From: Escherichia phage_vB_EcoD_Punny
Reading direction: 5' to 3' (one strand)
DNA: 49,765 nucleotides
Sequence record: OL539444.1
Of the stretch, positions 22,698 to 49,765 are shown one piece after another; the stretch's first letter is position 1; each line of letters starts with the position of its first letter. Under the pieces are notes generated by a model. It was not told the DNA's origin. It searched no databases and saw nothing but the letters and a program-made list of their open reading frames with translations. The translations under genes were made by a program, and so were the position numbers.

Positions 22698-23123
22698 ATG
22701 CACGTAATCACCGGAGAAATTCGCAAAGAGCCATTTGTAAAGCAAGGCGCAAACGGCACATTATACATCGTTGAGCTTTCGGAGTCATTTAAAGATCGTG
22801 AAGGTAATCGACAATACACCAATTACAAATTCTTCTTTAATGCTAAAAGCGACGGCATGAATAATTGGTATCGTGAAGCATTTCAGCAGGGTAAAGTTAT
22901 TTCTGTATCATGCGATCAGTTACGCATTGATAGCCAGGAATACAACGGGCAGATTTATAACACATTGACGGCGGCGGGCTTTCCTAATCTTTTATTCAGT
23001 CAACGCGGAGAAGGGCAGGCGCCACAACAGCAGCAACCTCGACAGCAACAACAATCGCCACGCCAGCAAGCGCCTCAAAACAACGAGCCGCCTATGGATT
23101 TTGATGATGATATCCCATTCTGA
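22698..23123 (+). CDS. ssb: single-stranded DNA-binding protein
   Basis: OB-fold-like N-terminus, Gln/Pro-rich linker and acidic C-terminal tail DFDDDIPF typical of SSB. Confidence 0.8.
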   Translation: MHVITGEIRKEPFVKQGANGTLYIVELSESFKDREGNRQYTNYKFFFNAKSDGMNNWYREAFQQGKVISVSCDQLRIDSQEYNGQIYNTLTAAGFPNLLFSQRGEGQAPQQQQPRQQQQSPRQQAPQNNEPPMDFDDDIPF

Positions 23124-34150: not shown

Positions 34151-34194
34151 AATATACCCGATACAAGATCGGGTGTTTTAACAAAAAGTGCTAT
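34151..34194 (-). promoter_or_regulatory. dyad-motif promoter unit M1
   Basis: On the minus strand ATAGCACTTTTTGTTAAAAC, 18-nt gap with ACCCGAT/ATCGGGT hairpin, TATATT, leader AACGAAACG. Confidence 0.55.
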
Positions 34195-37730: not shown

Positions 37731-37928
37731 GTTTAAATCCTTTCTGTATGACCTTGTAAGGCGTTTTGTTTGTAGGTGTGGCAATCGTATTGGTTACGGC
37801 CTGAAATCGCGACATAATGCGAAACAGGCCGCTATTTTTTACTTACAGAATGGGCATGTTGTTTTATCCCAGCTTCCTCCGTGTTTTGGACAGCAAATTT
37901 TTTCGATAGGTGTCATTTTAAATACTCC

Positions 37929-38153
37929 TTAGAATGGGAAACAACGCTTGCAAGATGGATCGAAGTTACAACCGCAATCATTGATTATTGCGTTAGGATC
38001 AGCAAGCATCACGCTACTTTCTTGATCCATATCCATAGCGCCTAATGCGTCATCAAGCGTTATTTCAAGATAGGCAACTTTAAGCGCCCATTCCTTGTTG
38101 AGTCCAGCCGCCTCCGCTTCATGTAGGCGAGCAAAGAAAGCATCTTGAACCAT
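37929..38153 (-). CDS. hypothetical Cys-containing small protein
   Basis: About 74 aa, C-terminal CGCNFDPSCKRC. Confidence 0.4.
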   Translation of the reverse strand: MVQDAFFARLHEAEAAGLNKEWALKVAYLEITLDDALGAMDMDQESSVMLADPNAIINDCGCNFDPSCKRCFPF

Positions 38154-38154
38154 A

Positions 38155-38376
38155 TCAACCCCACTTCTCAATAAACATGCTCATTTCGTCAATCATCGCG
38201 TAAGCATCGCTTTCAGTCATGCGACGGATTCTTCCGCCTGGGTGTTCGCCAACAGCGTAACCAGTTTTTACGCGGGTAATCGTTAACTGATGGAATCAAG
38301 AATCGCGATCCATTTTCAAAACTACTTTCCCGTGAGCTTTGACAATGTTCATGATGGATTCAGTTTTCAGTTTCAT
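38155..38376 (-). pseudogene. small ORF interrupted by an in-frame TGA
   Basis: ATG 38376 with GGAGA RBS 31 nt after the M4 -10; reading frame open for 73 codons except a TGA at 38296-38298. Confidence 0.3.
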
Positions 38377-38407
38377 TTTTGATTCTCCATTTTGTTTATG
38401 TGAAAGT

Positions 38408-38451
38408 ATGATACCAATCAGAGCGATATCGTTTTTAGCAATTCGTGCTAT
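38408..38451 (-). promoter_or_regulatory. dyad-motif promoter unit M4
   Basis: On the minus strand ATAGCACGAATTGCTAAAAA, 18-nt gap, TGgTATCAT. Confidence 0.5.
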
Positions 38452-38598
38452 TTACGGCGATAAACGGATATCCTGTTAAATCTGCATTTCTATAACGTGC
38501 AGACCTAACCCAACAGCCGCCTTTGCTCATAATTAAAGCGTTTTTATGGTGAATGTTCACGCGGTAAATTCTTCCGGTTTTTATGTTTTTGAAGTAGG

Positions 38599-38832
38599 TC
38601 ATAATTTAACCTCATGATACTCTATAAACTCTTGCACATATGCGCATTCGCGCGGCGACTCCTGGCCTTTTATCACCTCACAGCCACCATTAAACAGATA
38701 GCAGTGCTGGCAAAGGTTGCCACCTGCGTTTTCCTCAGCGATCTGAATTCCGGTACACAAACCGCCACCAAACCTATGAGGAAAATCGTAAGCCTGGCAG
38801 CGGCACGTTGCTTGATTCCGCTTACGTTTCAT
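38599..38832 (-). CDS. Cys-rich small protein (possible zinc-binding)
   Basis: 77 aa with CRC, C...C..C and CQHC clusters. Confidence 0.4.
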   Translation of the reverse strand: MKRKRNQATCRCQAYDFPHRFGGGLCTGIQIAEENAGGNLCQHCYLFNGGCEVIKGQESPRECAYVQEFIEYHEVKL

Positions 38833-39113
38833 TAGATGTTCTCGCTAATAAACTGGATAACCTGGCGAAGATGTTTTTCATCTTTAATTAATGCTGGCAA
38901 TTCTTCCATAACTTCTTTTTTAAGATAAATGTTTGCATTCCAGGTGAATGAGCCATCACCATTTACGCGGTAAGAGCAAAGCCATTCGCAATCATTATCA
39001 GATTCCCAAATGCACAGCGTTTCAAATTCTTCAAACTTGTTGTAACCCGTTTCAATGCTTAACTCAATGCCACGTTTGCCAGCGAAGTTAGTAGTTGTTT
39101 TTGATACCATCAT
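38832..39113 (-). CDS. hypothetical protein
   Basis: 93 aa ORF 31 nt downstream of the M5 -10; GGAGA RBS. Confidence 0.5.
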   Translation of the reverse strand: MMVSKTTTNFAGKRGIELSIETGYNKFEEFETLCIWESDNDCEWLCSYRVNGDGSFTWNANIYLKKEVMEELPALIKDEKHLRQVIQFISENI

Positions 39114-39144
39114 TTTTAAATTCTCCGGTTCGTTTTGATGAATG

Positions 39145-39189
39145 CATTATGCCAAAACAAACCGGATCGCTTTTAACAAAAAGTGCTAT
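39145..39189 (-). promoter_or_regulatory. dyad-motif promoter unit M5
   Basis: On the minus strand ATAGCACTTTTTGTTAAAAG, 18-nt gap, TGgCATAAT, leader CATCAAAACGAACCGGAGA. Confidence 0.55.
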
Positions 39190-39290
39190 TTAATTAAAAT
39201 ACGAATACCTTTTCGCACGCTTTCCGTCGCCTCCGTAATGGTCATTAGCAACAGCAAGAATCCAAGCGTTAGGAATAAAAAATAGCTTCA

Positions 39291-39485
39291 TCAATCACTC
39301 TCCATGACAATTACAGGCTCCAGGCGCTCAAGCACCACTTTGAAATCGGAGTAAAAAGTAGGGCGACGTTTTGTTAATTCCTCATATGTATCAGTTGCCA
39401 GGCAAGCGCGATCACCTTCATAGCACACAACTCGCTTACCATTTGCGCGACTGATTGCAACGACGCGATAAGTATTATTGATCAT
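39291..39485 (-). CDS. hypothetical protein
   Basis: 64 aa ORF coupled to its neighbours. Confidence 0.4.
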   Translation of the reverse strand: MINNTYRVVAISRANGKRVVCYEGDRACLATDTYEELTKRRPTFYSDFKVVLERLEPVIVMESD

Positions 39486-39718
39486 TTCATCACCTCAATT
39501 GAATAAATACTTTCAACGCCTGGCGCGTATAACCGCTTTCCATCTTCAGTTATGCAAAGACAAAGGGCAAGGCCGCGATTGTCTGAAATATGCAAGTCAT
39601 TTTGTCTATCCATCAAAATTTCATATTCGCGATCTTCATCAAAGCGCCAAACTCTTAACATGCACTTTCCAGATGATTTAACTTTTACTTTCTTTCCGAT
39701 GAAATTTAAACGACTCAT
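39482..39718 (-). CDS. hypothetical protein
   Basis: 78 aa ORF overlapping its neighbours by 4 nt. Confidence 0.4.
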   Translation of the reverse strand: MSRLNFIGKKVKVKSSGKCMLRVWRFDEDREYEILMDRQNDLHISDNRGLALCLCITEDGKRLYAPGVESIYSIEVMK

Positions 39719-39933
39719 TGTGCAGCCTCCACAGTTTCAAATACGGTATTGAATGCCAGAAGTTTAAATTTCTTGCCAGGCTCAACCACTGCGATATTCC
39801 AGGTAATGCCGCCGTGATATGCAACCATATCATCAATATCAACAGTAACCTCAGTACCTTTTTTGAACAATCCTTTTTCGTGGCTCGCATCGCGTACAGT
39901 AACCACAGTTTCGAATTGAGTTTGAATTTCCAT
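39715..39933 (-). CDS. hypothetical protein
   Basis: 72 aa ORF. Confidence 0.4.
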   Translation of the reverse strand: MEIQTQFETVVTVRDASHEKGLFKKGTEVTVDIDDMVAYHGGITWNIAVVEPGKKFKLLAFNTVFETVEAAQ

Positions 39934-40007
39934 CGTTAATCTCCTGATTGGTTTCGATGGGGTAACTATATCAAGATACCCCGATCCTTTTTTAGCAATT
40001 CGTGCTA

Positions 40008-40292
40008 TTAGCCAAACGCTTTAATTTCGAAATCTTCTTCTGCCTGATTAGCAACCGCCGTGAACATTTGCTCAAGAGTTTCAAATCCGAAATGTTTAGC
40101 GATCTCATAAGCCGCTTTACCTTCCGTCTGCATGTTTAGCGCTTCGCAATAGTGCATTTCCAGATTGTTCAGGTATTTGTTGCCAGTTGGGATTGCTGCG
40201 TCGATTTTGTCCCACACGATCCAAAAGTTTGTTTTGTCAGCCGCTGCGAGTACAAAGTTTGTCTTGTCTACTGCAATCACTAAGTTTTCCAT
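40008..40292 (-). CDS. hypothetical protein
   Basis: 94 aa ORF 31 nt downstream of the M6 -10; first gene of the leftward cluster. Confidence 0.5.
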   Translation of the reverse strand: MENLVIAVDKTNFVLAAADKTNFWIVWDKIDAAIPTGNKYLNNLEMHYCEALNMQTEGKAAYEIAKHFGFETLEQMFTAVANQAEEDFEIKAFG

Positions 40293-40323
40293 CGTGTAAT
40301 CCTCAGTTCGTTTCGTTGATGTA

Positions 40324-40368
40324 ATTATAGCAATTCGCGTCTGATTGGTTTTAACAAAAAGTGCTATT
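40324..40368 (-). promoter_or_regulatory. dyad-motif promoter unit M6
   Basis: On the minus strand ATAGCACTTTTTGTTAAAAC, 19-nt gap, TGcTATAAT, leader CATCAACGAAACGAA. Confidence 0.55.
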
Positions 40369-40376
40369 CATGCGAT

Positions 40377-40404
40377 AGACCGATTGGTCTAGACCGTTTG
40401 GTCT
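40377..40404. promoter_or_regulatory. tandem palindromes AGACCGNTTGGTCT x2 (operator-like)
   Basis: Two adjacent 14-bp imperfect palindromes immediately upstream of unit M6. Confidence 0.45.
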
Positions 40405-40407
40405 AAT

Positions 40408-40530
40408 GAACGCATCGTTTTGTGTATCGAACGCATTCACGATCACGTTATACGATCACAATATGATCATGTTGATGATTGATGTGTGAGTTGATGTGAT
40501 TTGATTTGATTAGATTTGATTATATTTGAG
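40408..40530. repeat. GATC cluster and GATTT/TGATG iteron-like tract (possible origin or regulatory region)
   Basis: Repeated GAACGCAT, three closely spaced GATC sites, then TGATGATTGATGTG and five GATT(T/A) pentamers; no ORF. Confidence 0.4.
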
Positions 40531-40667
40531 TAGTGAGAGAGCAGAAATAATCACACCTTGCCGATCAGAGAAAACTTTTCCCGCAAAAAATCACTCCAGG
40601 CTCAGCTCGTTTCGTTTTGTTCCTCGCCGTTCCCATCCCGACCTTCCGCAGTTTAGCGCAACGTTAC

Positions 40668-40740
40668 ACAACACGTATAACAACAAAATATCTATATAAT
40701 ACATTGAAAAGTAAGATAATTATTATTATATATCTATATT
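40668..40740. repeat. conserved AT-rich intergenic element, copy B
   Basis: Matches 20171-20245 (two identical blocks of 20 and 25 nt). Confidence 0.7.
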
Positions 40741-40956
40741 GTTATATAACTTGTTTTGCTTGTTTCTCATGATATTGATACCCCTTCACGGATTTATAGA
40801 GTATAAAATTATAAGATAGGTGCTCTTATTTATTATAGGTGGCGGTGATTTTTAGCGAAATGGTGTAACGATTTAGAACATCGTTGATTTGAAAGGATAA
40901 ATTTTCAATTACTGTTACATTGCGTGATGTTTTTGTTGCCTAATCAAAAATAACAC

Positions 40957-40984
40957 TTGACGCATAAGCCAGGTTTGCTAAGAT
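40957..40984 (+). promoter_or_regulatory. sigma70-like early promoter
   Basis: TTGACG, 16-bp spacer, TAAGAT; about 34 nt upstream of ATG 41019. Confidence 0.5.
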
Positions 40985-41018
40985 TTCTGCATCGAGCAAC
41001 AACGGAGGATAACCAATC

Positions 41019-41306
41019 ATGGTAAGGGGCAAAATCGTAAAGCGTGACCTATCCATAGTTGATGCAACGCCAGAAGATGCAACCAAAGATATCATGCGCC
41101 TAATGTACATAGCGCGGATACTGGAGGCTGCAAAACCAAACAGGCTGTATTACATCGACATTAAGGCATCCGGTCGCGACGTTAATTCATTGCGCCAGGC
41201 AATAAACACGATTGCTAAAGAGGATCGCAGAACAATTAAGACAATAACCACTGATAACGGCTATATCGGCTTTGTTATCATCGACGTTAAAGAAGCGTTT
41301 GTGTAA
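41019..41306 (+). CDS. hypothetical early protein
   Basis: 95 aa ORF with GGAGGA RBS; first gene of the rightward early array. Confidence 0.5.
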   Translation: MVRGKIVKRDLSIVDATPEDATKDIMRLMYIARILEAAKPNRLYYIDIKASGRDVNSLRQAINTIAKEDRRTIKTITTDNGYIGFVIIDVKEAFV

Positions 41307-41317
41307 AGAGGTGAATC

Positions 41318-41761
41318 ATGGAACAAATGACAAGTAAAGAGTTTTGCGAAAAATTGCGCGAAGCTGCAAGAGCCGCTGCAACAGGTGAAGTGATAAAGTT
41401 GCCAGTTGCCTATATCACAATGCACGTTCAGGCAGAGGACGCAAAGAAGCTAAATTCCTCATACATTCGCACGATCATGAATCGCGTACCTGAAGTAAAA
41501 GAGGTTGGATCTGTAAGCGTAAAGAAAAAGACAAGTGATGACGGAGCGGAATATTACGAGATCGCAATCAATCGTGACACAAAGCGCCGCATCGTAACAA
41601 TTAATGACCTTCCGGCAATCAAAGAGCATGAGCGCGAAAAACTGATCGAAAAGATTATGCGCATATCGCCGGACTTCTCACACCTGGACGATGAAAAGGC
41701 ACTTGTTGCAATGCGAGCGGTTGCCACGTTCAAAGATCTGATTAAGGAGATCGCGAAGTGA
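41318..41761 (+). CDS. hypothetical early protein
   Basis: 147 aa ORF. Confidence 0.5.
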   Translation: MEQMTSKEFCEKLREAARAAATGEVIKLPVAYITMHVQAEDAKKLNSSYIRTIMNRVPEVKEVGSVSVKKKTSDDGAEYYEIAINRDTKRRIVTINDLPAIKEHEREKLIEKIMRISPDFSHLDDEKALVAMRAVATFKDLIKEIAK

Positions 41762-41865
41762 AAGCATTCGCATTTATCGCTGCAATGTGGTGCGTTGCAA
41801 TCGGTCATCCTGGCGTGGCGCTTGCGTTGTGCGTATTTATTTTGTTGGGGGTGTTTGATGAATAA
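41758..41865 (+). CDS. small hydrophobic peptide (35 aa, GTG start)
   Basis: AAGGAGA RBS 7 nt upstream; start overlaps the upstream stop; single predicted transmembrane helix. Confidence 0.3.
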   Translation: MKAFAFIAAMWCVAIGHPGVALALCVFILLGVFDE

Positions 41866-41971
41866 GAAACTTTTAGATCATGCCGTGGTGTTCTTTATCG
41901 CTGCTGCTGGATTTTCGCTGTTGTCAATTGCTTTTTCAATCCTTGCTTTTGCCGTGTCAATGCTGAAATGA
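41858..41971 (+). CDS. small hydrophobic peptide (37 aa)
   Basis: MNKKLLDHAVVFFIAAAGFSLLSIAFSILAFAVSMLK. Confidence 0.3.
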   Translation: MNKKLLDHAVVFFIAAAGFSLLSIAFSILAFAVSMLK

Positions 41972-41993
41972 CGGATTACATCCTGATTGGCAA

Positions 41994-42037
41994 ATAGCAC
42001 TTTTTGTTAAAACTCGATTGGGGTAGTTTGGCATAAT
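41994..42037 (+). promoter_or_regulatory. dyad-motif promoter unit P5
   Basis: ATAGCACTTTTTGTTAAAAC, 18-nt gap, TGgCATAAT between GGGGTA and TACCCC, leader CATCGAAACGAAACGAGG. Confidence 0.55.
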
Positions 42038-42068
42038 TACCCCATCGAAACGAAACGAGGAAAACACA

Positions 42069-42227
42069 ATGACTACCTTAATCACCTGGGAACACGAAAC
42101 AAGCCAGCCAGTAACCCGCGAGTTTGAAACTCTTAGCCAGGCTTATCTGCTGGCTGCTAACGGTGGTTATTACAAGGCTCAAGTTATTGATGAAATGGGA
42201 GTGATCGTTTATGAATTCCATGCATAA
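42069..42227 (+). CDS. hypothetical small protein (52 aa)
   Basis: ATG 31 nt after the P5 -10; below the track cut-off. Confidence 0.4.
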   Translation: MTTLITWEHETSQPVTREFETLSQAYLLAANGGYYKAQVIDEMGVIVYEFHA

Positions 42228-42492
42228 TTTCCGCAGCTACACGCAGGAAGTGGATTTTGATGGGATCAAGTTACCACTTCCTAACATATACCGCTATATC
42301 ACTCGTGATGAATACGGATTTATAAACGCATGGCGAGATAAGCCAAAAAAGGTTGGCAATGAATACGGCGACGGCTCAGAGATGCCGATCACGTTAGGTC
42401 ATCAAACTGGCGAAAATGTATCGGCTGTAATGCGCAAATATCGCCGCAGCCGCACAAACTCATTAATTTCTATCTTTGGCATACCGGAGTAA
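42211..42492 (+). CDS. hypothetical protein
   Basis: 93 aa ORF. Confidence 0.4.
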   Translation: MNSMHNFRSYTQEVDFDGIKLPLPNIYRYITRDEYGFINAWRDKPKKVGNEYGDGSEMPITLGHQTGENVSAVMRKYRRSRTNSLISIFGIPE

Positions 42493-42497
42493 TAAAA

Positions 42498-42755
42498 ATG
42501 TTTGAACTGAAACGCGTAACTGTTGAGATCCTGAATGATGGCTCTTACGATGGAATGAAACACTTAACCTTCCCGATCCGCATTGAAAATTGCATTGATT
42601 ATGGGATCGAAGTTGGCATGGTTGACGTTCCGCTTGATGCACTTATCGCGGCTGGCTATGACAAAGAGAAAGGCCAATGTGCTGATATACCGGATAGCTA
42701 TGAAAGCGACACACATTTCCCGTTCACATATGGAGAATGCCGGATTGTTGATTGA
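42498..42755 (+). CDS. hypothetical protein
   Basis: 85 aa acidic ORF. Confidence 0.45.
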   Translation: MFELKRVTVEILNDGSYDGMKHLTFPIRIENCIDYGIEVGMVDVPLDALIAAGYDKEKGQCADIPDSYESDTHFPFTYGECRIVD

Positions 42756-42828
42756 GGTGATAAAGTGAGCAGTTGGCACAATGAGCACGTAATGCAATTC
42801 TACCGCCACAGAATAAAGAAAATGCTAA

Positions 42829-42872
42829 ATAGCACGAATTGCTAAAACTAAATCAGGGGAATTTGTTATAGT
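42829..42872 (+). promoter_or_regulatory. dyad-motif promoter unit P6
   Basis: ATAGCACGAATTGCTAAAAC, 18-nt gap, TGtTATAGT flanked by AGGG/CCCT. Confidence 0.5.
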
Positions 42873-42905
42873 GCCCTCGTTGAGTTAAGCAAAGGAGAAT
42901 CAACA

Positions 42906-43460
42906 ATGTTAAGCATCGAAAAAATCAACTTCCCGATCACATTTAAAAATTGCGCTGACGGTAGAAATATTACATATCACAGTGAATACAGCAACGGCGT
43001 TTGGAGTAGCGGCGAGAAAAGCAGTCTTTCATTGCAATATTTCATTAAGCTGCATAATGAGCATAACCAAAGCAATAGTAATGTGTTGAGGTACTATTAC
43101 GAAATGGCAGAAAAACGCGAGGATAACGATCTGTTAGATGCGATGAAATATTTAAATATCAAGCCTGGCCAGGTTAATTTAAACGGTGCTGTGTTTACTG
43201 CGTCAGTAGGTGCTAAAGATTACGATTACATTTGCAAGGTTGAAAATATGCCAGTTGGCGCAACTCTGTTAGGTGTTCAGCGTGAAAATGGCGAATGGGA
43301 CGAGTTGAAATTTAAACCGCGCCGCATTGAAGTACACGACGATGTTATTTGCTTGCTTTCCGGTTATTCTGGAGGTTACAAGAGCGGCAATAATTACGGA
43401 GCTGAAATCAACATTAAGATCGGTACTAACGTAAAAATCAAAAACAGCACGAATTGCTAA
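42906..43460 (+). CDS. hypothetical protein
   Basis: 184 aa ORF with AAGGAGAA RBS; the C-terminal NSTNC and stop are encoded by the next dyad motif. Confidence 0.5.
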   Translation: MLSIEKINFPITFKNCADGRNITYHSEYSNGVWSSGEKSSLSLQYFIKLHNEHNQSNSNVLRYYYEMAEKREDNDLLDAMKYLNIKPGQVNLNGAVFTASVGAKDYDYICKVENMPVGATLLGVQRENGEWDELKFKPRRIEVHDDVICLLSGYSGGYKSGNNYGAEINIKIGTNVKIKNSTNC

Positions 43461-43486
43461 AACAAATTAACGGCCTTGCGATATAG
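43443..43486 (+). promoter_or_regulatory. dyad-motif promoter unit P7
   Basis: ACAGCACGAATTGCTAAAAC, 18-nt gap, TATAGT in the loop of GGCCTT/AAGGCC. Confidence 0.55.
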
Positions 43487-43519
43487 TAAGGCCATACCAA
43501 ACAAACCGGAGAAGTTAAC

Positions 43520-43696
43520 ATGAAATTATATGGTGTCGCTGGAATCGCTTTCTTTTCTTTGTGGATTGCTGCAATCGCTGGCTGGATCATGAATATCGTT
43601 GAAATGTTTGGCGATATCACAACCAACGAATTAATCATTCGCGCAATCGGGATATTCGTTGCACCTGCTGGCGCATTAATGGGCTGGTTCATGTAA
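43520..43696 (+). CDS. small membrane protein (58 aa)
   Basis: Two hydrophobic segments; CCGGAGAA RBS. Confidence 0.4.
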   Translation: MKLYGVAGIAFFSLWIAAIAGWIMNIVEMFGDITTNELIIRAIGIFVAPAGALMGWFM

Positions 43697-43739
43697 TAGC
43701 ACTTTTTGCTAAAACAAAATTTCGGGGTTGCGGTATAGT
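43696..43739 (+). promoter_or_regulatory. dyad-motif promoter unit P8
   Basis: ATAGCACTTTTTGCTAAAAC, 18-nt gap, TATAGT in the loop of GGGGT/ACCCC. Confidence 0.55.
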
Positions 43740-43769
43740 GACCCCACACAAAACAAAGAGGATCAGATA

Positions 43770-44096
43770 ATGGAATTAGCACGTAACGCAATTTATGGTT
43801 TGCACCTCAAAGGCGGAAAAGGTTTTACTTGTGCCCACCTTTTTCATGTGAATGAGCGTGGTCAGATGGATATCGCAATGTTTGTTGACCAAAGGGTTAA
43901 GAAAGGCGGTGAGGGTGATTGTGATACATTCCGACCGGATTTAGTTGAATACGATCACACATACAGTCATGATCACTGGATTGGTCACGGTCGCAAGTTT
44001 GTAATGGTTAATAGCCACGTTACCGACACAAGCAAAATCACTGCATCGCAGTATAAGCGCATGGCTCGCAAGGTTATGAAGTTAGAAGCGCAATAG
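43770..44096 (+). CDS. hypothetical protein
   Basis: 108 aa ORF with AAGAGGA RBS; stop is the TAG in the next motif. Confidence 0.5.
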   Translation: MELARNAIYGLHLKGGKGFTCAHLFHVNERGQMDIAMFVDQRVKKGGEGDCDTFRPDLVEYDHTYSHDHWIGHGRKFVMVNSHVTDTSKITASQYKRMARKVMKLEAQ

Positions 44097-44136
44097 CACG
44101 AAATGTTAAGCGGTCATGTGTGCTGATTGGTACAAT
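44093..44136 (+). promoter_or_regulatory. dyad-motif promoter unit P9 (degenerate motif)
   Basis: ATAGCACGAAATGTTAAGCG, 18-nt gap, TGgTACAAT within GGTCAT/ATGACC hairpin. Confidence 0.45.
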
Positions 44137-44168
44137 GACCTCATCAAACAACAAGAGAGGATAGAAAA

Positions 44169-44276
44169 ATGTCAAAAGAATCAATTAAGCAGTTTCTGAA
44201 ATACGGCTCTATGATTGTGCTCGCTACCGTTGTGCTGGCTGGTATCGCTTACAGTGTCATTGAATTTGTGGGGTAA
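44169..44276 (+). CDS. small hydrophobic peptide (35 aa)
   Basis: MSKESIKQFLKYGSMIVLATVVLAGIAYSVIEFVG; GAGAGGA RBS. Confidence 0.35.
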   Translation: MSKESIKQFLKYGSMIVLATVVLAGIAYSVIEFVG

Positions 44277-44279
44277 TGG

Positions 44280-44843
44280 ATGTTTAAGATCGAATTGTGG
44301 GGCAAGGAATACACTAATCACTACGTTGCAACAAAACAGCGTTTCGTGATTTTCGACCTGGACGGCACATTGTCAAACGGCATTAACCGTTTGCACCTTT
44401 TGCCAACTGTTGATTTACATCTTACTGAAAGCTGGAGTGAGTTTAATCGCGCCGCAAAGGATGATTTACCATTCAGGGATAACATAGCCGTTTGCAATGC
44501 TATGTTTGATGCCGGATACCTGGTTATTATCCTAACAGGACGTAGTGATGAAGTTGAAGCAGAAACGCGATCCTGGTTAGCTGAAAACGGCGTTTCTTTC
44601 GATTGGCTGATTATGCGCCGCGCGGAGGACAACCGGAAAGATACCGTGATCAAAGAGGAAGTTTTACGCGCTATCGGCCTGGAGAATATCGTTGCATGTT
44701 GGGATGACTCACCAAACGTTATTGCACACCTGCGCGGCCTGGGCTTGACTGTTTACCAGGTCATTGACTACGGCGAGCAGTTACACGATCACTTAAAATC
44801 TCACGGCGTGGAGGAATTGAGCGATGACAGCAAAGCTAATTGA
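44280..44843 (+). CDS. HAD-superfamily phosphatase (polynucleotide 3'-phosphatase-like)
   Basis: FVIFDLDGTLSNG (DxDGT motif I), 187 aa. Confidence 0.55.
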   Translation: MFKIELWGKEYTNHYVATKQRFVIFDLDGTLSNGINRLHLLPTVDLHLTESWSEFNRAAKDDLPFRDNIAVCNAMFDAGYLVIILTGRSDEVEAETRSWLAENGVSFDWLIMRRAEDNRKDTVIKEEVLRAIGLENIVACWDDSPNVIAHLRGLGLTVYQVIDYGEQLHDHLKSHGVEELSDDSKAN

Positions 44844-45012
44844 AGATCGTCATGGTGATAACGTGCTTATTTACATCGAAGGGAAATCGGTTTGGATTGA
44901 CTGCAAATATGAGGATGACACACATTTGCAGTTTCGCGGAATCTTTGACAAGAAAGGCGCGTTAGAGTTAGCAGAACACATCAAGCTGCTTGCGGAAGAA
45001 TTACCGGAATAG
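44824..45012 (+). CDS. hypothetical protein
   Basis: 62 aa ORF overlapping the upstream gene end. Confidence 0.4.
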   Translation: MTAKLIEDRHGDNVLIYIEGKSVWIDCKYEDDTHLQFRGIFDKKGALELAEHIKLLAEELPE

Positions 45013-45022
45013 AGGATTTATT

Positions 45023-45208
45023 ATGTTGACTTTTATCTTGATCGCTATAGTTTTAATTCTGTATATTTGCGGCGCTTTCCTGATGCGAGCGCTACTAAAA
45101 GAGGCTGACGCTGATGATAAGGATAGTTGGAAGCCGATTATTTTATGGCCTGGATATATCATCGTGCCGATTTACGAACTAATCCGCGATGGTGAGTTTA
45201 AGTGGTAA
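45023..45208 (+). CDS. small membrane protein (61 aa)
   Basis: N-terminal transmembrane helix; AGAGGA RBS. Confidence 0.4.
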   Translation: MLTFILIAIVLILYICGAFLMRALLKEADADDKDSWKPIILWPGYIIVPIYELIRDGEFKW

Positions 45209-45252
45209 ATAGCACTTTTTGCTAAAACTTGCTAAGGCACATTTGATAAAGT
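45209..45252 (+). promoter_or_regulatory. dyad-motif promoter unit P10
   Basis: ATAGCACTTTTTGCTAAAAC, 18-nt gap, TGaTAAAGT in the loop of AAGGCACA/TGTGCCTT. Confidence 0.55.
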
Positions 45253-45285
45253 GTGCCTTGTCGAGACAAGCAAGGAGAATGACAC

Positions 45286-45582
45286 ATGAAAGTTTTTATG
45301 ATTAAACAGTTTGGACGCGCTGCATATTATATCATCAACGACGAGGGAGATATTTTCATTTCGAACTATCCGACTCTTGAAGTTGGGCGTCATTTCAGAA
45401 GTTCAGTTGACGAAAAAGGAATTATCAATATGGTTGAGTGTGGAATGATGGTTCCCTTCAATAAAGAAGCGGCTGAATTATTCCAGCAATCACAGATCCG
45501 AAAGCGCAACCGCAATATTATTTGCTTTACCGTCGCAATGGTTGTAACTGTTGGCTCAATCTTACTTGGAGTGTGGGCGTGA
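45286..45582 (+). CDS. hypothetical protein with C-terminal transmembrane helix
   Basis: 98 aa ORF with AAGGAGAA RBS. Confidence 0.45.
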   Translation: MKVFMIKQFGRAAYYIINDEGDIFISNYPTLEVGRHFRSSVDEKGIINMVECGMMVPFNKEAAELFQQSQIRKRNRNIICFTVAMVVTVGSILLGVWA

Positions 45583-45764
45583 TGAATCTTGATAATAAAG
45601 TTGAAACGCAAAAGACGATTGATTATCTGCGTGACCTTGCCGACAAGCTGGAGAATAACCAGATTCATTTAAATGAGATCGTTATTGAATCGCGCAACGT
45701 TTGTTGGAACGTTGAAGAAGAAACATTAACCATGCAAGTTTTAAAGGCGGTAGACAATGGCTAA
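45582..45764 (+). CDS. hypothetical protein (60 aa)
   Basis: ATG overlaps the upstream TGA. Confidence 0.35.
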   Translation: MNLDNKVETQKTIDYLRDLADKLENNQIHLNEIVIESRNVCWNVEEETLTMQVLKAVDNG

Positions 45765-46332
45765 AATTATCATCCTTAACGCGCCTCCAGGTGCTGGTAA
45801 AGACACAATCGGCAAGATGATTTCTTTCTATTCGCCTGGTGAGCAATGCCGCATCATTAGCTTTAAAGAGCCAATGTTTGACATTGCATTAGCTATCCTG
45901 GGCAAAGAGAACTATCAGCGTTTCATGCTGGCTTACGATGACAGAGAGCAGAAAGAAAGGCCACAAACGTTCCTGATGGGTATGTCGCCTCGAGAGTTCA
46001 TGATCTGGATTAGCGAGGATGTGATCAAGCCTAAATTCGGCAAGGATTATTTCGGCGTAAGGTTTAACCAGAAAGTAAAAGAGTGTGATGCTCCTGTTGT
46101 TTGCACTGATGGTGGTTTTCCAGATGAAATTATCGCTCTAATCAATGCTGGTAATGAGGTGAAGTTATGCCGATTGCATCGCGACGGGTTCACGTTTGCA
46201 GGTGATAGCCGCAACTACATTCGAATCAATCCCTATTACCAGAAAAACGGATATAGCGAGCACGATTACTTATTAACCAATGAAAAGCCGATGATTACAG
46301 TTAGCGAAATCATTCGCGATCACCTTAAATAG
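45757..46332 (+). CDS. P-loop kinase (nucleotide/polynucleotide kinase-like)
   Basis: N-terminal Walker A NAPPGAGKDT; 191 aa; near the HAD phosphatase. Confidence 0.5.
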   Translation: MAKIIILNAPPGAGKDTIGKMISFYSPGEQCRIISFKEPMFDIALAILGKENYQRFMLAYDDREQKERPQTFLMGMSPREFMIWISEDVIKPKFGKDYFGVRFNQKVKECDAPVVCTDGGFPDEIIALINAGNEVKLCRLHRDGFTFAGDSRNYIRINPYYQKNGYSEHDYLLTNEKPMITVSEIIRDHLK

Positions 46333-46372
46333 CACGAATTGCTAAAACTTGCGCAAGGCCATTTGTTATAGT
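46329..46372 (+). promoter_or_regulatory. dyad-motif promoter unit P11
   Basis: ATAGCACGAATTGCTAAAAC, 18-nt gap, TGtTATAGT in the loop of AAGGCCA/TGGCCTT. Confidence 0.55.
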
Positions 46373-46407
46373 GGCCTTATTCAAGAGAAGCAACCGAGGA
46401 ATAATCG

Positions 46408-46605
46408 ATGAAAATCAAATGCACCAAATCAAACACCATGAATCTGACAGTTGGCGCAATTTACCACATGGAAGATGGTGTAAACGGATTTAGCCCGACT
46501 GTTACGCATGAATACGGCGGTCACTTCTTCTTAAACGGTAAAGACGGATTATCTGTAAATGTTGGCTCTTTCGTTCTGGCAGAATTTGAGATCGTGGAGG
46601 AATAA
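46408..46605 (+). CDS. hypothetical protein
   Basis: 65 aa ORF. Confidence 0.45.
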   Translation: MKIKCTKSNTMNLTVGAIYHMEDGVNGFSPTVTHEYGGHFFLNGKDGLSVNVGSFVLAEFEIVEE

Positions 46606-46606
46606 A

Positions 46607-46771
46607 ATGTTCTGGATTCATTCGCCGCAAGGATTGCTTTATGTGCCTGGCGTTGAATTGGAAGAACGACGCGACGGCGACACGGTAAACATCATAACGA
46701 AGGATTCAAAAGGCCATACACTAAAAACGTATGTTTTTAACACTCCGGTTAAGGTTGAAAAAGATGATTAG
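46607..46771 (+). CDS. hypothetical protein (54 aa)
   Basis: GGAGG RBS. Confidence 0.35.
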   Translation: MFWIHSPQGLLYVPGVELEERRDGDTVNIITKDSKGHTLKTYVFNTPVKVEKDD

Positions 46772-46946
46772 ATTTATTGGTTTTGTGGCATTGCTTTTGT
46801 GCGGCATATTGCTTACTGACAATGACACTTGGCAAAGTGCTGTTGGCGGCTTACTTATTTTTCTTGCTGGTGGCATGGTTGGCAGTGATGACGCAGCAAA
46901 CAAGAATAAACTTTCAGATCATTTACGCAGAGAGACAAAACGATGA
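46764..46946 (+). CDS. small membrane protein (60 aa)
   Basis: Two hydrophobic segments. Confidence 0.35.
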   Translation: MIRFIGFVALLLCGILLTDNDTWQSAVGGLLIFLAGGMVGSDDAANKNKLSDHLRRETKR

Positions 46947-47188
46947 ATAGAAAAATGCTGGTACGAGCATTCGCAAAGATTGCTAAAAGATGGGGTGATT
47001 CAGCTAAAACGCCTTACACGTTTAGCCGATACGGTTATAAAAATGCTCGCGCCTGGGGTCGCTGCATTGCTGATAACTACAACTCCGAAATGATGGAAGA
47101 TTTTGCAAAGTGGATTGATACGCCTTTGAAGGATTGGTGTCAATTTGACTATGACTATTTCGCAGAAGAAGAAATTTCTTGTTGGTAA
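46943..47188 (+). CDS. hypothetical protein
   Basis: 81 aa ORF. Confidence 0.4.
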   Translation: MNRKMLVRAFAKIAKRWGDSAKTPYTFSRYGYKNARAWGRCIADNYNSEMMEDFAKWIDTPLKDWCQFDYDYFAEEEISCW

Positions 47189-47200
47189 GGAGAATAAAAT

Positions 47201-47698
47201 ATGAAAGCTAAAAATGATTTTTATAACTACCTGACAAAAGGCCGTGACTATACCGTTTTGAATAGCATAGATACTCTTTACCTGGTTGTTGCTGATAATG
47301 GCGTTAGAGTTTGGCTTGATAAAACTCTTTTCGAAAGCGAGCACCTAAGCAACGCAAAGCGGATCGCAGATGAAGCAAGCGCATTAGCAGAGCGTGAACG
47401 AATTCGCGATATAGTAGCGGAGCAGGTTAGAAATTCATGTTCGCCTGGTGGCGATATCTTCAAATCAATGCGCGGTGAAATGACGGTTGGAATTCAAGAT
47501 CGCGTAATTTCAAAGTCAGTTGATTCTGTAATTGAGAATGCGCGATTCAATGCGTTGATTAACTCAGAGCATAACGAATACGTCAAAGCATTAGAGCAAC
47601 TGCGTGAAGTGCTGCGAGTGCCGGAAGGTGAAAATATTGTGACTCATGCAAAGGTTGTAAGAGCGTTGGCTGATGCGCTGATTGGTCTGCAAAAATAG
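47201..47698 (+). CDS. hypothetical protein
   Basis: 165 aa ORF with AAGGAGAA RBS; stop is the TAG in the next motif. Confidence 0.5.
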   Translation: MKAKNDFYNYLTKGRDYTVLNSIDTLYLVVADNGVRVWLDKTLFESEHLSNAKRIADEASALAERERIRDIVAEQVRNSCSPGGDIFKSMRGEMTVGIQDRVISKSVDSVIENARFNALINSEHNEYVKALEQLREVLRVPEGENIVTHAKVVRALADALIGLQK

Positions 47699-47738
47699 CA
47701 CTTTTTGTTAAAACTTCCGCGAGGGCATTTGTTAAAGT
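47695..47738 (+). promoter_or_regulatory. dyad-motif promoter unit P12
   Basis: ATAGCACTTTTTGTTAAAAC, 18-nt gap, TGtTAAAGT in the loop of GAGGGCA/TGTCCTC. Confidence 0.55.
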
Positions 47739-47772
47739 GTCCTCATTGAAGCGAAACACGGAGATTTAGGAA

Positions 47773-47982
47773 ATGGCTGTATACACTGGCAAAATGTTTG
47801 AAAGCGAAAACCCGATTTACGGCGGCACTTATGAGCTAATCATTGATGAAGATCGTGTAATCCTGGCTGACGACGATAACCAGGAATATTACGAAGTAGA
47901 AGCCGATAAATGGGATAACGATGTTATGTTTCTTGTTGATAATAGCCACATCAAGTTTTATGCAGTGGAGGAAGAAGAATGA
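47773..47982 (+). CDS. hypothetical protein
   Basis: 69 aa acidic ORF. Confidence 0.45.
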   Translation: MAVYTGKMFESENPIYGGTYELIIDEDRVILADDDNQEYYEVEADKWDNDVMFLVDNSHIKFYAVEEEE

Positions 47983-48230
47983 TCACAATCAACCTATCAG
48001 AAGAACAAGCGAAATCATTGTTGCGCGGCCTGGGCTGGCGAATGGGTAGCGGTAGCGAGGCGGTTGTAAACATCAAAGAGGAAGTAGCAAAAGAGCTTTT
48101 TGCACAGCTTGAGCATAAACTGATGCCAGCATCAACAAGCGCGGCGGAGTTGGCAGTATGGCGGCATGAAAACGGCCTTAATGAAATGGACGTTGAGAAG
48201 TGGAAACGTAAAAAACGGAAAAGCTGTTGA
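47979..48230 (+). CDS. hypothetical protein
   Basis: 83 aa ORF. Confidence 0.4.
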   Translation: MITINLSEEQAKSLLRGLGWRMGSGSEAVVNIKEEVAKELFAQLEHKLMPASTSAAELAVWRHENGLNEMDVEKWKRKKRKSC

Positions 48231-48281
48231 TAAGGTTGGTTTTGTTGGTCGCTGTATTATGGTTAACGTGGAGAAGTTCAG

Positions 48282-48608
48282 ATGATTTATGTTCACAGTT
48301 ACGGCGTTGGCAAGTTTGGCAGCAAGCAGATCAGAAACATTCACGACACGTTAGAAGAAGCGCAAGCACAGCAACGCGTTTTAGGTGGAGTTGTTCAGGC
48401 TTTCGAACCAGTGGAAGATCTGGAAATGCAAGAGGCCATAAAGGAAATCGTTGTTGATGAAGTTTCATGTATAATCGACGAATTGAGCACTGATGCGCCA
48501 GGGTTCGCAAGAACATTTGAACCAGGCTCAACGCAATGGGATTGCTGGAAGGTGAAAACCTTAAACAACATTCGAGCAATCTTGGATGGAAAATTTAACG
48601 AAAATTGA
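48282..48608 (+). CDS. hypothetical protein
   Basis: 108 aa ORF followed by a terminator. Confidence 0.45.
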   Translation: MIYVHSYGVGKFGSKQIRNIHDTLEEAQAQQRVLGGVVQAFEPVEDLEMQEAIKEIVVDEVSCIIDELSTDAPGFARTFEPGSTQWDCWKVKTLNNIRAILDGKFNEN

Positions 48609-48619
48609 TAGCTCAAATA

Positions 48620-48653
48620 GCGCCTCAATCGCATTCTAAGAGGCGCATTTTTT
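48620..48653 (+). terminator. rho-independent terminator
   Basis: Stem GCGCCTC/GAGGCGC, 13-nt loop, then TTTTTT. Confidence 0.6.
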
Positions 48654-48667
48654 AGGAAGGTGATTCT

Positions 48668-48796
48668 ATGCCTGAATACATAAAACCGTCGCAGTGGTGC
48701 GCACAGAAGCAAGAAGAAGCATTAGAGCGCGGCGACACTGACACAGCATTGCACTACTTTGAAATGTTTCAACTTTGGAAATCAAGAGGACTTTAA
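48668..48796 (+). CDS. hypothetical small protein (42 aa)
   Basis: Plus-strand ORF after the terminator. Confidence 0.3.
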   Translation: MPEYIKPSQWCAQKQEEALERGDTDTALHYFEMFQLWKSRGL

Positions 48797-48797
48797 A

Positions 48798-49025
48798 ATG
48801 TTTGGACTTAATGAGGCTGAATACAACATTGTTAAACGCGCTGCAAAAGAGTGCATGAAGGATCTGAAAGTTGAAATTACGAGTGGCAACAAATACGATC
48901 ATATTGCGGCTGGCATTATCACCAAACATCACACGCCAATTTCTACCTTAATCACTCGCACAAAGTTTGTATGGCTTGCTGGTTATATAGCTGGTCGATG
49001 GGGTAAGCCTGGCGAGTACGAATAA
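48798..49025 (+). CDS. hypothetical protein
   Basis: 75 aa ORF starting MFGLNE, AAGAGGA RBS; the track start at 48759 is probably too long. Confidence 0.4.
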   Translation: MFGLNEAEYNIVKRAAKECMKDLKVEITSGNKYDHIAAGIITKHHTPISTLITRTKFVWLAGYIAGRWGKPGEYE

Positions 49026-49047
49026 TAAGCACTTGAATCAATGAAGG

Positions 49048-49076
49048 TTGACGGCGTGTTGTCTGATTGGTAGATT
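49048..49076 (+). promoter_or_regulatory. sigma70-like early promoter
   Basis: TTGACG, 17-bp spacer, TAGATT. Confidence 0.55.
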
Positions 49077-49207
49077 AAACGCCGTGAACATAAGAGGCTC
49101 AATAGAGCAAAGCGCGGCGTGTTAGCCGTAAAACTTAATCGGATTGGATCGCAAGGCGAATGACAATCGCGGGAACCGTAACCCGCAACCATTCAGGAGA
49201 ATTCACA

Positions 49208-49369
49208 ATGCAAAACAAAGAAATCGCAAAGGTAACAATCATCATTGAACGTGACGGCAAGAAAACGCGATACAAAAAGCGATTTAAACAAGGCGAGGCG
49301 GTATTAGGCCGGATCGGTGATTTCATGGTGAAATTGCAAGAGGATAAGCCGGATGGTATTCAAAGTTAA
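49208..49369 (+). CDS. hypothetical small protein (53 aa)
   Basis: AGGAGA RBS; preceded by a leader of about 125 nt. Confidence 0.4.
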   Translation: MQNKEIAKVTIIIERDGKKTRYKKRFKQGEAVLGRIGDFMVKLQEDKPDGIQS

Positions 49370-49535
49370 GTTAACTATCAGGCGCATGGGTCGTAATTGC
49401 GGATCATGCAAACAGGATTTCGAATGCGAGGTTGCAGCATTTGACGAACATCACGCCGTCAACCTTGCAAAGCGTTTATCTGGTGCTAACCCTGAAACAC
49501 ACCAATTTTCAATTAACTATGTGAGGGCTATATAA
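49353..49535 (+). CDS. hypothetical protein
   Basis: 60 aa ORF with a CGSC...CE motif. Confidence 0.35.
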   Translation: MVFKVKLTIRRMGRNCGSCKQDFECEVAAFDEHHAVNLAKRLSGANPETHQFSINYVRAI

Positions 49536-49765
49536 TGCTGATGTTCATTGCGGGTTTTGGTTTTTGTGCGATTATCTGTTTCTTTCTTTATCTTTGTGTT
49601 TCGTGGGGTGTGCAGCGTTGCGTAAAAGACAACGAATTAGTGATCGCCATTTACGAAAACAAAACTGATAAATGGAAGATTACTAAAAACTTTGAAAAGA
49701 TTGCTGATGAAATTGCATTTCGTCGCAAGTTTGGCAAGCCTGGAAGCATCAAGTATATTGATTGA
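49535..49765 (+). CDS. small membrane protein
   Basis: 76 aa with N-terminal transmembrane helix; the stop is the last codon of the window. Confidence 0.4.
   Translation: MLMFIAGFGFCAIICFFLYLCVSWGVQRCVKDNELVIAIYENKTDKWKITKNFEKIADEIAFRRKFGKPGSIKYID

Follow-up and report, generated by a model that had tools for sequence, protein, structure and literature searches.

The window analysed here is the 49,765-nucleotide sequence of Escherichia phage vB_EcoD_Punny (OL539444.1), which is the entire genome of a T1-like phage of the genus Tlsvirus, opened about 74 nt upstream of terS. The region under study consists of two divergent arrays of short genes, one running leftward from about 40.3 kb and the other rightward from about 41.0 kb to the end of the genome. 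Over positions 37800-49765 a megablast search gave 100% identity with vB_CfrD_BlueShadow, a Citrobacter phage of the Drexlerviridae (Tempevirinae, Tlsvirus), and many matches of 80–99% to other T1-like phages of Citrobacter, Escherichia and Salmonella. A sequence-only reading of this region had pointed out ten tiny open reading frames (ORFs), seven for hydrophobic membrane peptides (here P1 to P7) and three for Cys-rich mini-proteins in the leftward array (C1 to C3), and had proposed that they are host-takeover or anti-defence effectors.

All ten ORFs are present in the sequence. Nine lie exactly where they had been placed, and the 25-codon ORF C3, put at about 37846-37923, has its true site 7 nt away at 37839-37916 on the minus strand. 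The seven hydrophobic ORFs reach a best 19-residue Kyte-Doolittle mean of 2.05–2.89 and have charged flanks; the Cys-rich trio contains 7 Cys and 3 His (C1, 38599-38832), 4 Cys and 1 His (C2, 37929-38153) and again 4 Cys and 1 His (C3). Every ORF either has a Shine-Dalgarno (SD)-like sequence upstream, the weakest being that of C1, or abuts or overlaps a neighbouring gene by 1–8 nt. The suggestion that the membrane peptides are individually placed in units is only loosely true: P3 (43520-43696) stands alone between two units marked by a 22-bp repeat, while each of the other six shares its unit with further genes, at the head, in the middle or at the end.

On the plus strand of 41000-49765 there are nine transmembrane (TM)-like ORFs of 30–100 aa, compared with 0.36 ± 0.65 in 200 dinucleotide shuffles. 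This shuffle null is too lenient. The non-coding frames of the same region hold four TM-like ORFs in antisense and one in a wrong sense frame, and a crude count over 71 related loci gives 3.27 such ORFs in sense and 2.62 in antisense per ~9 kb. Because they are common in antisense and wrong frames, a hydrophobic open frame alone is weak evidence for a gene.

What decides the matter is conservation. In 72 T1-like loci fetched around the gene annotated as polynucleotide kinase (PNK), intact orthologues were found for all ten ORFs, in 5–45 loci each. The pooled ratio of nonsynonymous to synonymous substitution (dN/dS) is 0.04–0.39 where computable; for C1 it was not, the proportion of synonymous differences (pS) being saturated at 0.77 against a proportion of nonsynonymous differences (pN) of 0.30. 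For every ORF except P2 (41858-41971), these substitution patterns show purifying selection on the peptide. We therefore consider it probable, with some reserve that extends to the roles discussed below, that the tiny membrane-spanning and Cys-rich ORFs are real, conserved protein-coding genes of a virulent T1-like siphovirus.

The gene calls of the sequence-only reading are right, and better than the deposited annotation of BlueShadow, which lacks P1 (41758-41865), P4 (44169-44276), C3 and a further Stp-like ORF described below. The exact sequences of nine of the ten ORFs are deposited in public protein collections as "hypothetical protein", and eight match PHROG families, every one of unknown function, while P2 and C3 match neither PHROG nor Pfam. 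In the 2024 reannotation of TLS, the type member of the genus, transmembrane domains (TMDs) called by DeepTMHMM are listed for gp08, gp11 and gp28, the orthologues of P4, P5 and P7, with no function given; gp12 and gp17, small genes at equivalent positions, are also listed with a TMD (PMC11447400, Table S2). The content of the region is thus as expected of a T1-like phage and almost wholly catalogued already as families of unknown function. A literature search on small membrane or Cys-rich proteins of T1-like phages, their anti-defence genes and mimics of SSB tails (SSB being the protein that binds single-stranded DNA) found no relevant study.

Predicted membrane proteins of the rightward array

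P1 (41758-41865, plus strand) is a 35-residue hydrophobic peptide with a GTG start behind the SD sequence AAGGAG. It has two short hydrophobic stretches parted by GHPG (best 19-residue Kyte-Doolittle mean 2.34), overlaps the end of the upstream gene by 4 nt and matches phrog_22353 (E 3.6e-24). It is present in 10 loci with a dN/dS of 0.39, and its orthologues start with GTG, ATG or TTG at the identical position. P3 (43520-43696, plus strand; phrog_6006, E 5.6e-20; dN/dS 0.16) is a two-TM hairpin of 58 aa, the sole gene between the repeat units at 43443 and 43695, and is named "TMhelix containing protein" by one source.

P4 (44169-44276, plus strand), a single-TM peptide of 35 aa, matches phrog_17726 (E 1.9e-27), and its TLS orthologue gp08 has one TMD (PMC11447400). 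It is the most constrained of the set (dN/dS 0.04, 59 synonymous versus 10 nonsynonymous differences) and ends 3 nt before the PNKP-phosphatase gene. A TM ORF is not a constant feature in front of the PNK gene of T1-like phages, as only the Tlsvirus clade has one there. P5 (45023-45208, plus strand; phrog_9755, E 5.4e-35; dN/dS 0.36), the last gene of the PNK unit, encodes a membrane protein of 61 aa with a conserved YVCG.FLMRA core and FKW end in the orthologues of 21 loci; TLS gp11 is credited with two TMDs (PMC11447400). P6 (46764-46946, plus strand; phrog_14912, E 3.1e-40; dN/dS 0.35) is a two-TM hairpin of 60 aa whose stop overlaps the start of the next gene and whose divergent orthologues retain the MIR/MK start, DNDTW and NKLSDHLR. 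For both P5 and P6 BlueShadow has longer starts, which are less supported than 45023 and 46764, since divergent orthologues begin at the latter residues; to judge from these alignments, P5 starts at ATG 45023 and not at BlueShadow's TTG 44990. Of 74 loci, only about ten, all of Tlsvirus type, have P1, P2, P4 and P6, and only five have P3.

The rightward array contains an eighth membrane protein that was absent from the list of the sequence-only reading. This is gp69 (45286-45582, plus strand; 98 aa), which has a C-terminal TM anchor at residues 77-98 and corresponds in position to TLS gp12 with its one TMD (PMC11447400).

P7 (49535-49765, plus strand; phrog_5976) combines an N-terminal TM anchor with a conserved basic soluble domain in 76 aa. 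It matches PF23973 (DUF7299), a family with no known function, over its full length (residues 1-76 of 76) with 102.4 bits against a cut-off of 27, as do its homologues, 25 of 25 of which carry PF23973; its dN/dS is 0.33, and one TMD is listed for TLS gp28 (PMC11447400). An iterated hidden Markov model search found a family member in 45 T1-like loci. P7 is the last gene before terS, and in 42 of the 44 loci that include terS the family member ends 47-80 nt upstream of it. This fixed position of DUF7299 is established in the present analysis. Neither P6 nor P7 has a lipobox, and both were rejected as lipoproteins.

The position of P7, kept over a wide range of divergence, suggests another possibility, namely that the membrane proteins do not act on host defence but serve the phage's own programme, either in the timing of lysis as holin- or antiholin-like proteins or as tethers for replication or packaging, with P7 working together with the terminase module. 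P3 and P6 are indeed shaped like class II holins (two-TM hairpins), and a 71-aa version of P6 carries the UniRef name "Holin". However, this label is automatic and without evidence, and a complete lysis cassette with pinholin, signal-arrest-release (SAR) endolysin and u-spanin is located elsewhere (~32.8-33.9 kb), about 10 kb from P3 and P6. In addition, P3 ends in ...MGWFM without a charged C-terminal tail, and most T1-like phages lack P1 to P6, as would not be expected if these had core functions. The C-terminal tail of P6 is basic, with 6 K/R and 4 D/E. We regard a role of the membrane proteins in the phage's own programme as rather unlikely.

The coding status of P2 is the least secure of the ten. 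This ORF (41858-41971, plus strand) would encode a single-TM peptide of 37 aa, MNKK followed by 28 hydrophobic residues. It occurs in 35 phage records, in 30 of these at 99% identity or more, and its orthologues differ by 5 synonymous and 4 nonsynonymous changes (pS 0.047). The block 41860-41980 is 98.7% identical among Tlsvirus relatives, compared with a regional median of 91% and with 84% for the adjacent P1 gene; it runs on without a break into the repeat unit at 41992 and is conserved as promoter units are. As the DNA of P2 is almost invariant, selection on the peptide is not demonstrable.

It could therefore be argued that some of the ORFs are not genes at all but chance frames, hydrophobic through base composition, and that P2 is perhaps conserved as DNA, in a regulatory or recombination block by the unit at 41992. 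The TM-like ORFs in non-coding frames, the promoter-like conservation of P2 and its lack of a PHROG or Pfam family would all fit this view. Against it, the other nine ORFs show synonymous divergence while their peptides are conserved, and P2 itself retains its ATG and the SD-like GGGGGTG, overlaps P1 by 8 nt, takes up the space left before the next unit and is annotated in Stevie and other records. Nor does an RNA account for the block, as no Rfam family was found and the fold z-score was 0.16. We give this view little credence; P2 may function as a gene, as a DNA element or in both ways. BlueShadow gp59 is called at 41878-42000 on the minus strand, antisense to P2, whereas Stevie and most relatives annotate the plus-strand ORF; the two calls are not both expected to be right.

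Cys-rich proteins of the leftward array

C1 (38599-38832, minus strand) has 77 aa, a basic N-terminus and the signature CxC.AY.FPHR..GG.C ... CxxC ... C(E/Q)V..G.E....C. The eight candidate metal ligands C10, C12, H19, C26, C41, C44, C51 and C63 do not vary or are conserved to at least 90%, and Y15, F17, P18 and R20 are likewise invariant or nearly so. The protein matches phrog_5016 (E 4.4e-42), as do all 66 of 66 aligned relatives; this family has no Pfam entry, structure or function, and sequence and profile searches with C1 found no Pfam family and no PDB relative. With only 6 homologues in a word-indexed search C1 had appeared to be restricted to T1-like phages, but HMMER retrieved 257 clusters at 50% identity from 1.84 billion representatives, and tblastn found the gene in 532 phage records, among them phages of Klebsiella, Serratia and Bordetella and YuA/M6-like phages of Pseudomonas. 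An assignment to the restriction-alleviation family Lar (PF14354) was rejected, as the window protein gave no match. One of the 66 relatives has a Lar-like zinc ribbon in an extra N-terminal segment, which at 23 bits is below the threshold of 28.6 and provides a lead only.

C2 (37929-38153, minus strand; phrog_9323, E 1.1e-45) is an acidic protein of 74 aa (pI 4.2) consisting of a conserved three-helix N-terminal head, a disordered linker and a variable tail, which in the window copy reads CxC...CxxC and ends in FPF. All 68 homologues are on contigs of T1-like size, a T1 homologue is listed as CPTT1_074, and the dN/dS is 0.15. The C-terminal end [IFMVL]P[FW](W) recurs in 82 of 89 distinct family members, which cover four of the five types of tail. 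There are purely acidic tails such as ...DDDDYIPW and ...EDDEEEMPIFMGIPF, the acidic run being confined to minority tail types.

Such ends recall the C-terminal tip of SSB, and the phage's own SSB (22698-23123, plus strand) ends in ...NNEPPMDFDDDIPF (MDFDDDIPF), thus carrying the canonical bacterial hexapeptide DDDIPF, a known protein-interaction hub (PMC5872125). Presumably, the phage SSB is able to recruit the host's SSB partners. C2 might then be a decoy whose flexible tail fills the SSB tip pockets of host DNA-metabolism proteins, or recruits these proteins. The recurrence of the hydrophobic-Pro-Phe/Trp end in four of five otherwise unrelated tail types, some of them purely acidic, and the predicted disorder of the linker would agree with this. 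The window copy, however, ends in ...SCKRCFPF; it has the hydrophobic-Pro-Phe tip, but it is basic instead of acidic before it, lacks the DDD run and has Phe in place of Ile. Moreover, the tip is missing from one tail type, and the members are phylogenetically related, so that 82 of 89 overstates the independent support. Also unlike SSB, C2 has no OB fold and no match to PF00436. A decoy function of C2 seems improbable to us, and as a novel reading it is second to, and weaker than, that of the C3 family.

C3 (37839-37916, minus strand) is a micro-protein of 25 aa, preceded by the strong SD sequence TAAGGAG, and reads MTPIEKICCPKHGGSWDKTTCPFCK. It was found at full length by tblastn in 137 phage records; in most of those listed nothing is annotated where it lies, while a few have a "hypothetical protein" or a gene abutting it there. 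A collection of 15 billion proteins does not contain the exact peptide. Besides T1-like phages it occurs in Skatevirus siphoviruses, where it abuts the end of a ParB helix-turn-helix gene and is followed by a 57-aa ORF and a RusA-like resolvase, and in Pseudotevenvirus (RB43/Lw1-type T4-like myoviruses), where it abuts an NMNAT-Nudix gene. In RB43 (428-1483 of the fetched locus) and Lw1 (1926-2984) this neighbour is a bifunctional cytidylyltransferase-like/NUDIX protein, and in the RB43-type phages it may belong to an NAD+ salvage module of the phage.

In 22 of 22 DNA versions, selected by pattern from three phage families, the C3 frame is closed by a stop after exactly 25 codons. The lineages are 63–75% identical in nucleotides, and since synonymous sites are near saturation (pS ~0.80) with pN at 0.155, strong purifying selection acts on the peptide and not on the DNA. 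M1, T2, P3, E5, K6, C9, H12, G13, G14, S15, C21, P22 and C24 are invariant, the four ligands C9, H12, C21 and C24 both in these versions and in the members recovered by tblastn; C8 is not conserved, and the window copy has W16 where other members have Gly. The ligands C9, H12, C21 and C24 are spaced C-x2-H-x8-C-x2-C and form two knuckle-like motifs, CP[KR]HG and CP[FY]C. A redox function, suggested by the likeness of CP[FY]C to the glutaredoxin active site, was rejected because 25 residues cannot form a thioredoxin fold.

Outside phage records we searched with degenerate DNA patterns of the C3 core. These matched 21 IMG/VR contigs and a further 8 true copies in metagenomes, in which C3 is never fused to a larger protein, and nothing in 185,579 bacterial and archaeal genomes. 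C3 matched no Pfam, PDB or other profile, and although it shares two knuckles and four invariant ligands with the zinc-ribbon and zinc-knuckle mini-proteins of the CPxCG type, it belongs to no catalogued family. Small phage proteins of the zinc-ribbon or zinc-knuckle kind include Mu Com and Lar; we know of no characterised zinc-knuckle example as short as C3. It is possible, and we put this forward tentatively, that C3 founds an uncatalogued family of stand-alone CHCC micro-proteins (MTPIEK..C..HGGSG....CP[FY]C[KR]) that has spread horizontally among Drexlerviridae, Skatevirus and Pseudotevenvirus, three unrelated lineages of virulent enterobacterial phages. Such portability, with other neighbours in each lineage, would suit an inhibitor that works by itself against a defence protein or a conserved factor of the host.

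Some DNA-modification genes are regulated by small zinc-finger proteins, Mu Com activating the translation of mom, and C3 lies directly upstream of the C5 methyltransferase gene on the shared strand in T1-like phages, even in the distant Vibrio phage Vc1; a cis-acting regulation of this neighbour is nevertheless highly improbable, as Skatevirus and Pseudotevenvirus have no adjacent methyltransferase while their peptide is 64–88% identical, and an RNA or DNA target specific to one neighbour should not move together with the peptide. Because the neighbours differ from lineage to lineage, a Mu Com-like role is unlikely, and a portable protein that binds some conserved factor, of the host or of the phage, appears to fit better.

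Probable accessory and conserved roles

If the ten ORFs are genes, as we believe, the seven membrane proteins, or eight with gp69, would be micro-proteins of the host's inner membrane, crossing it once or as a hairpin, and the conserved ligands suggest that the three Cys-rich proteins would fold around zinc. None of the ten has room for a catalytic domain, so that each most likely binds a partner protein or nucleic acid. The T4 proteins Imm and Sp are superinfection-exclusion proteins, and AcrZ, MgtS and KdpF-type proteins are small membrane regulators of E. coli. P1 to P7 are like these in size (35–76 aa), in having one or two TM helices, in lacking a catalytic domain and in presumably acting through binding to a larger membrane protein, but Pfam, NCBIfam and PHROG searches found no sequence relationship with them.

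The clade-restricted P1 to P6, C2 and C3 would be dispensable accessory factors, the membrane proteins among them possibly acting on host inner-membrane targets in defence, superinfection exclusion, transport or membrane integrity, and the zinc proteins on enzymes that handle DNA or RNA. The majority of the ORFs do not occur outside the Tlsvirus clade, and such a patchy distribution suits dispensable accessory genes. P7/DUF7299 and C1/phrog_5016, which are widely conserved, would instead have a conserved role internal to the phage.

The accessory roles also fit the modules in which the genes lie, since these carry an Stp-like ORF, a gene annotated as C5 cytosine methyltransferase and a PNKP-type phosphatase; a Dam annotation is present too. 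The Stp-like ORF (42765-42845, plus strand) encodes a peptide of 26 aa with a GTG start, was absent from the list of the sequence-only reading and is annotated as gp66 in Stevie. Residues 1-18 of 26 match PF08133, the family of T4 Stp (activator of the PrrC anticodon nuclease and peptide inhibitor of EcoprrI restriction), with 34.8 bits against a cut-off of 25 (E 1.5e-8), which makes the ORF a stand-alone member of this family; it is found at 16 loci with a dN/dS of 0.20. The likeness to Stp belongs to this neighbour only: none of the ten ORFs is similar, and the PF08133 profile matched none of them at E up to 1. The last codons of the Stp-like ORF (...NSTNC) lie inside the 22-bp repeat at 42827.

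The gene for the PNKP-type phosphatase lies 1.4 kb downstream, and the pairing of the two has been noted for Stevie and TLS (PMC4319613). Although annotated as "polynucleotide kinase", this gene (44280-44843, plus strand) matches only the phosphatase (HAD) domain of PNKP. A P-loop protein of 191 aa with no Pfam match is encoded 0.9 kb further downstream (45757-46332, plus strand), and kinase and phosphatase activities may be split between the two genes.

The Stp family match, the PNKP phosphatase and the C5 methyltransferase and Dam annotations thus provide an anti-restriction context, and the proposal that the ten ORFs are host-takeover or anti-defence effectors, resting as it does on neighbouring genes, is partly supported. 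Several results weigh against it and against our explanation as a whole. Apart from the TM-like ORFs in non-coding frames and the near-invariant DNA of P2, an argument from context amounts to guilt by association, and the neighbours of C3 vary by lineage. Effectors as a blanket statement would not apply to P7, which appears to be a core gene in fixed synteny and not a variable gene of fast turnover, nor to C1, which looks like a widely conserved phage gene. Family scans of all ten (Pfam, NCBIfam, PHROGs) returned no match carrying a function, and no fold or solved-structure match gave one either in PDB sequence searches with C1, C2 and C3 and with a C1 profile; matches to SARS-CoV-2 ORF8 and HisRS in these searches had E values of 0.3 or more and were judged to be chance. 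Structure prediction, which had been proposed as a check, was carried out with AlphaFold2 for C1 and C2 and led to no fold match giving a function: the C1 model, made from a 6-sequence alignment, has a predicted local distance difference test (pLDDT) score of 34.6 and is unusable, and that of C2, with helices at 3-15, 20-27 and 33-38, has a low score of 61 and no Foldseek match in the PDB with E below 7.

Gene units and significance of the small proteins

The 22-bp repeat ATAGCAC...TTG[CT]TAAAA behind the units has been published for Stevie, T1 and TLS, with its role given as unknown (PMC4319613, PMC11447400). In the window it occurs at about 20 sites, for example on the plus strand at 41992, 42827, 43443, 43695, 45207, 46327 and 47693 and on the minus strand at 34176, 36340, 37020, 38433, 39171, 39990 and 40349, oriented with transcription at every site. 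About 20 nt past it there is an extended -10-like TGnTATAGT or CATAAT. A nearby inverted repeat, which encloses the -10 or sits just before it, varies in sequence and keeps its position, its arms showing compensatory changes from copy to copy.

An orthologue of Stevie gp49 and TLS gp76 (73 aa, 98.6% identical; a T1 homologue exists) lies at 38158-38376 on the minus strand. An in-frame TGA replaces its Gly27 (GGA to TGA), and BlueShadow annotates nothing at the site; it is either a pseudogene or the result of a sequencing error. A gene broken in this way fits the picture of dispensable accessory genes. Records of Streptococcus phage MBBL140 (OR786094.1) and 19 of "Campylobacter jejuni" are 80–91% identical to this enterobacterial T1-like region; their host labels are probably wrong, or the records contaminated.

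The novelty of these findings is modest. It consists of C3, which is unannotated and horizontally spread, of the position of DUF7299 at terS and of the recurrent Pro-Phe carboxy terminus of the C2 family; the remainder restates a known property of phage early regions. As C3 illustrates, conserved micro-proteins still escape gene callers, even where a phage group has been sequenced well, and it is a cheap target for synthesis and testing.

Host shut-off by T1-like phages has been named an open question in the reannotation of TLS (PMC11447400). The small genes are obvious candidates for it, and a vetted list with correct starts, in which the clade-restricted genes are parted from the core or widespread ones (P7/DUF7299 at terS and C1/phrog_5016), is useful for knockout and expression screens.

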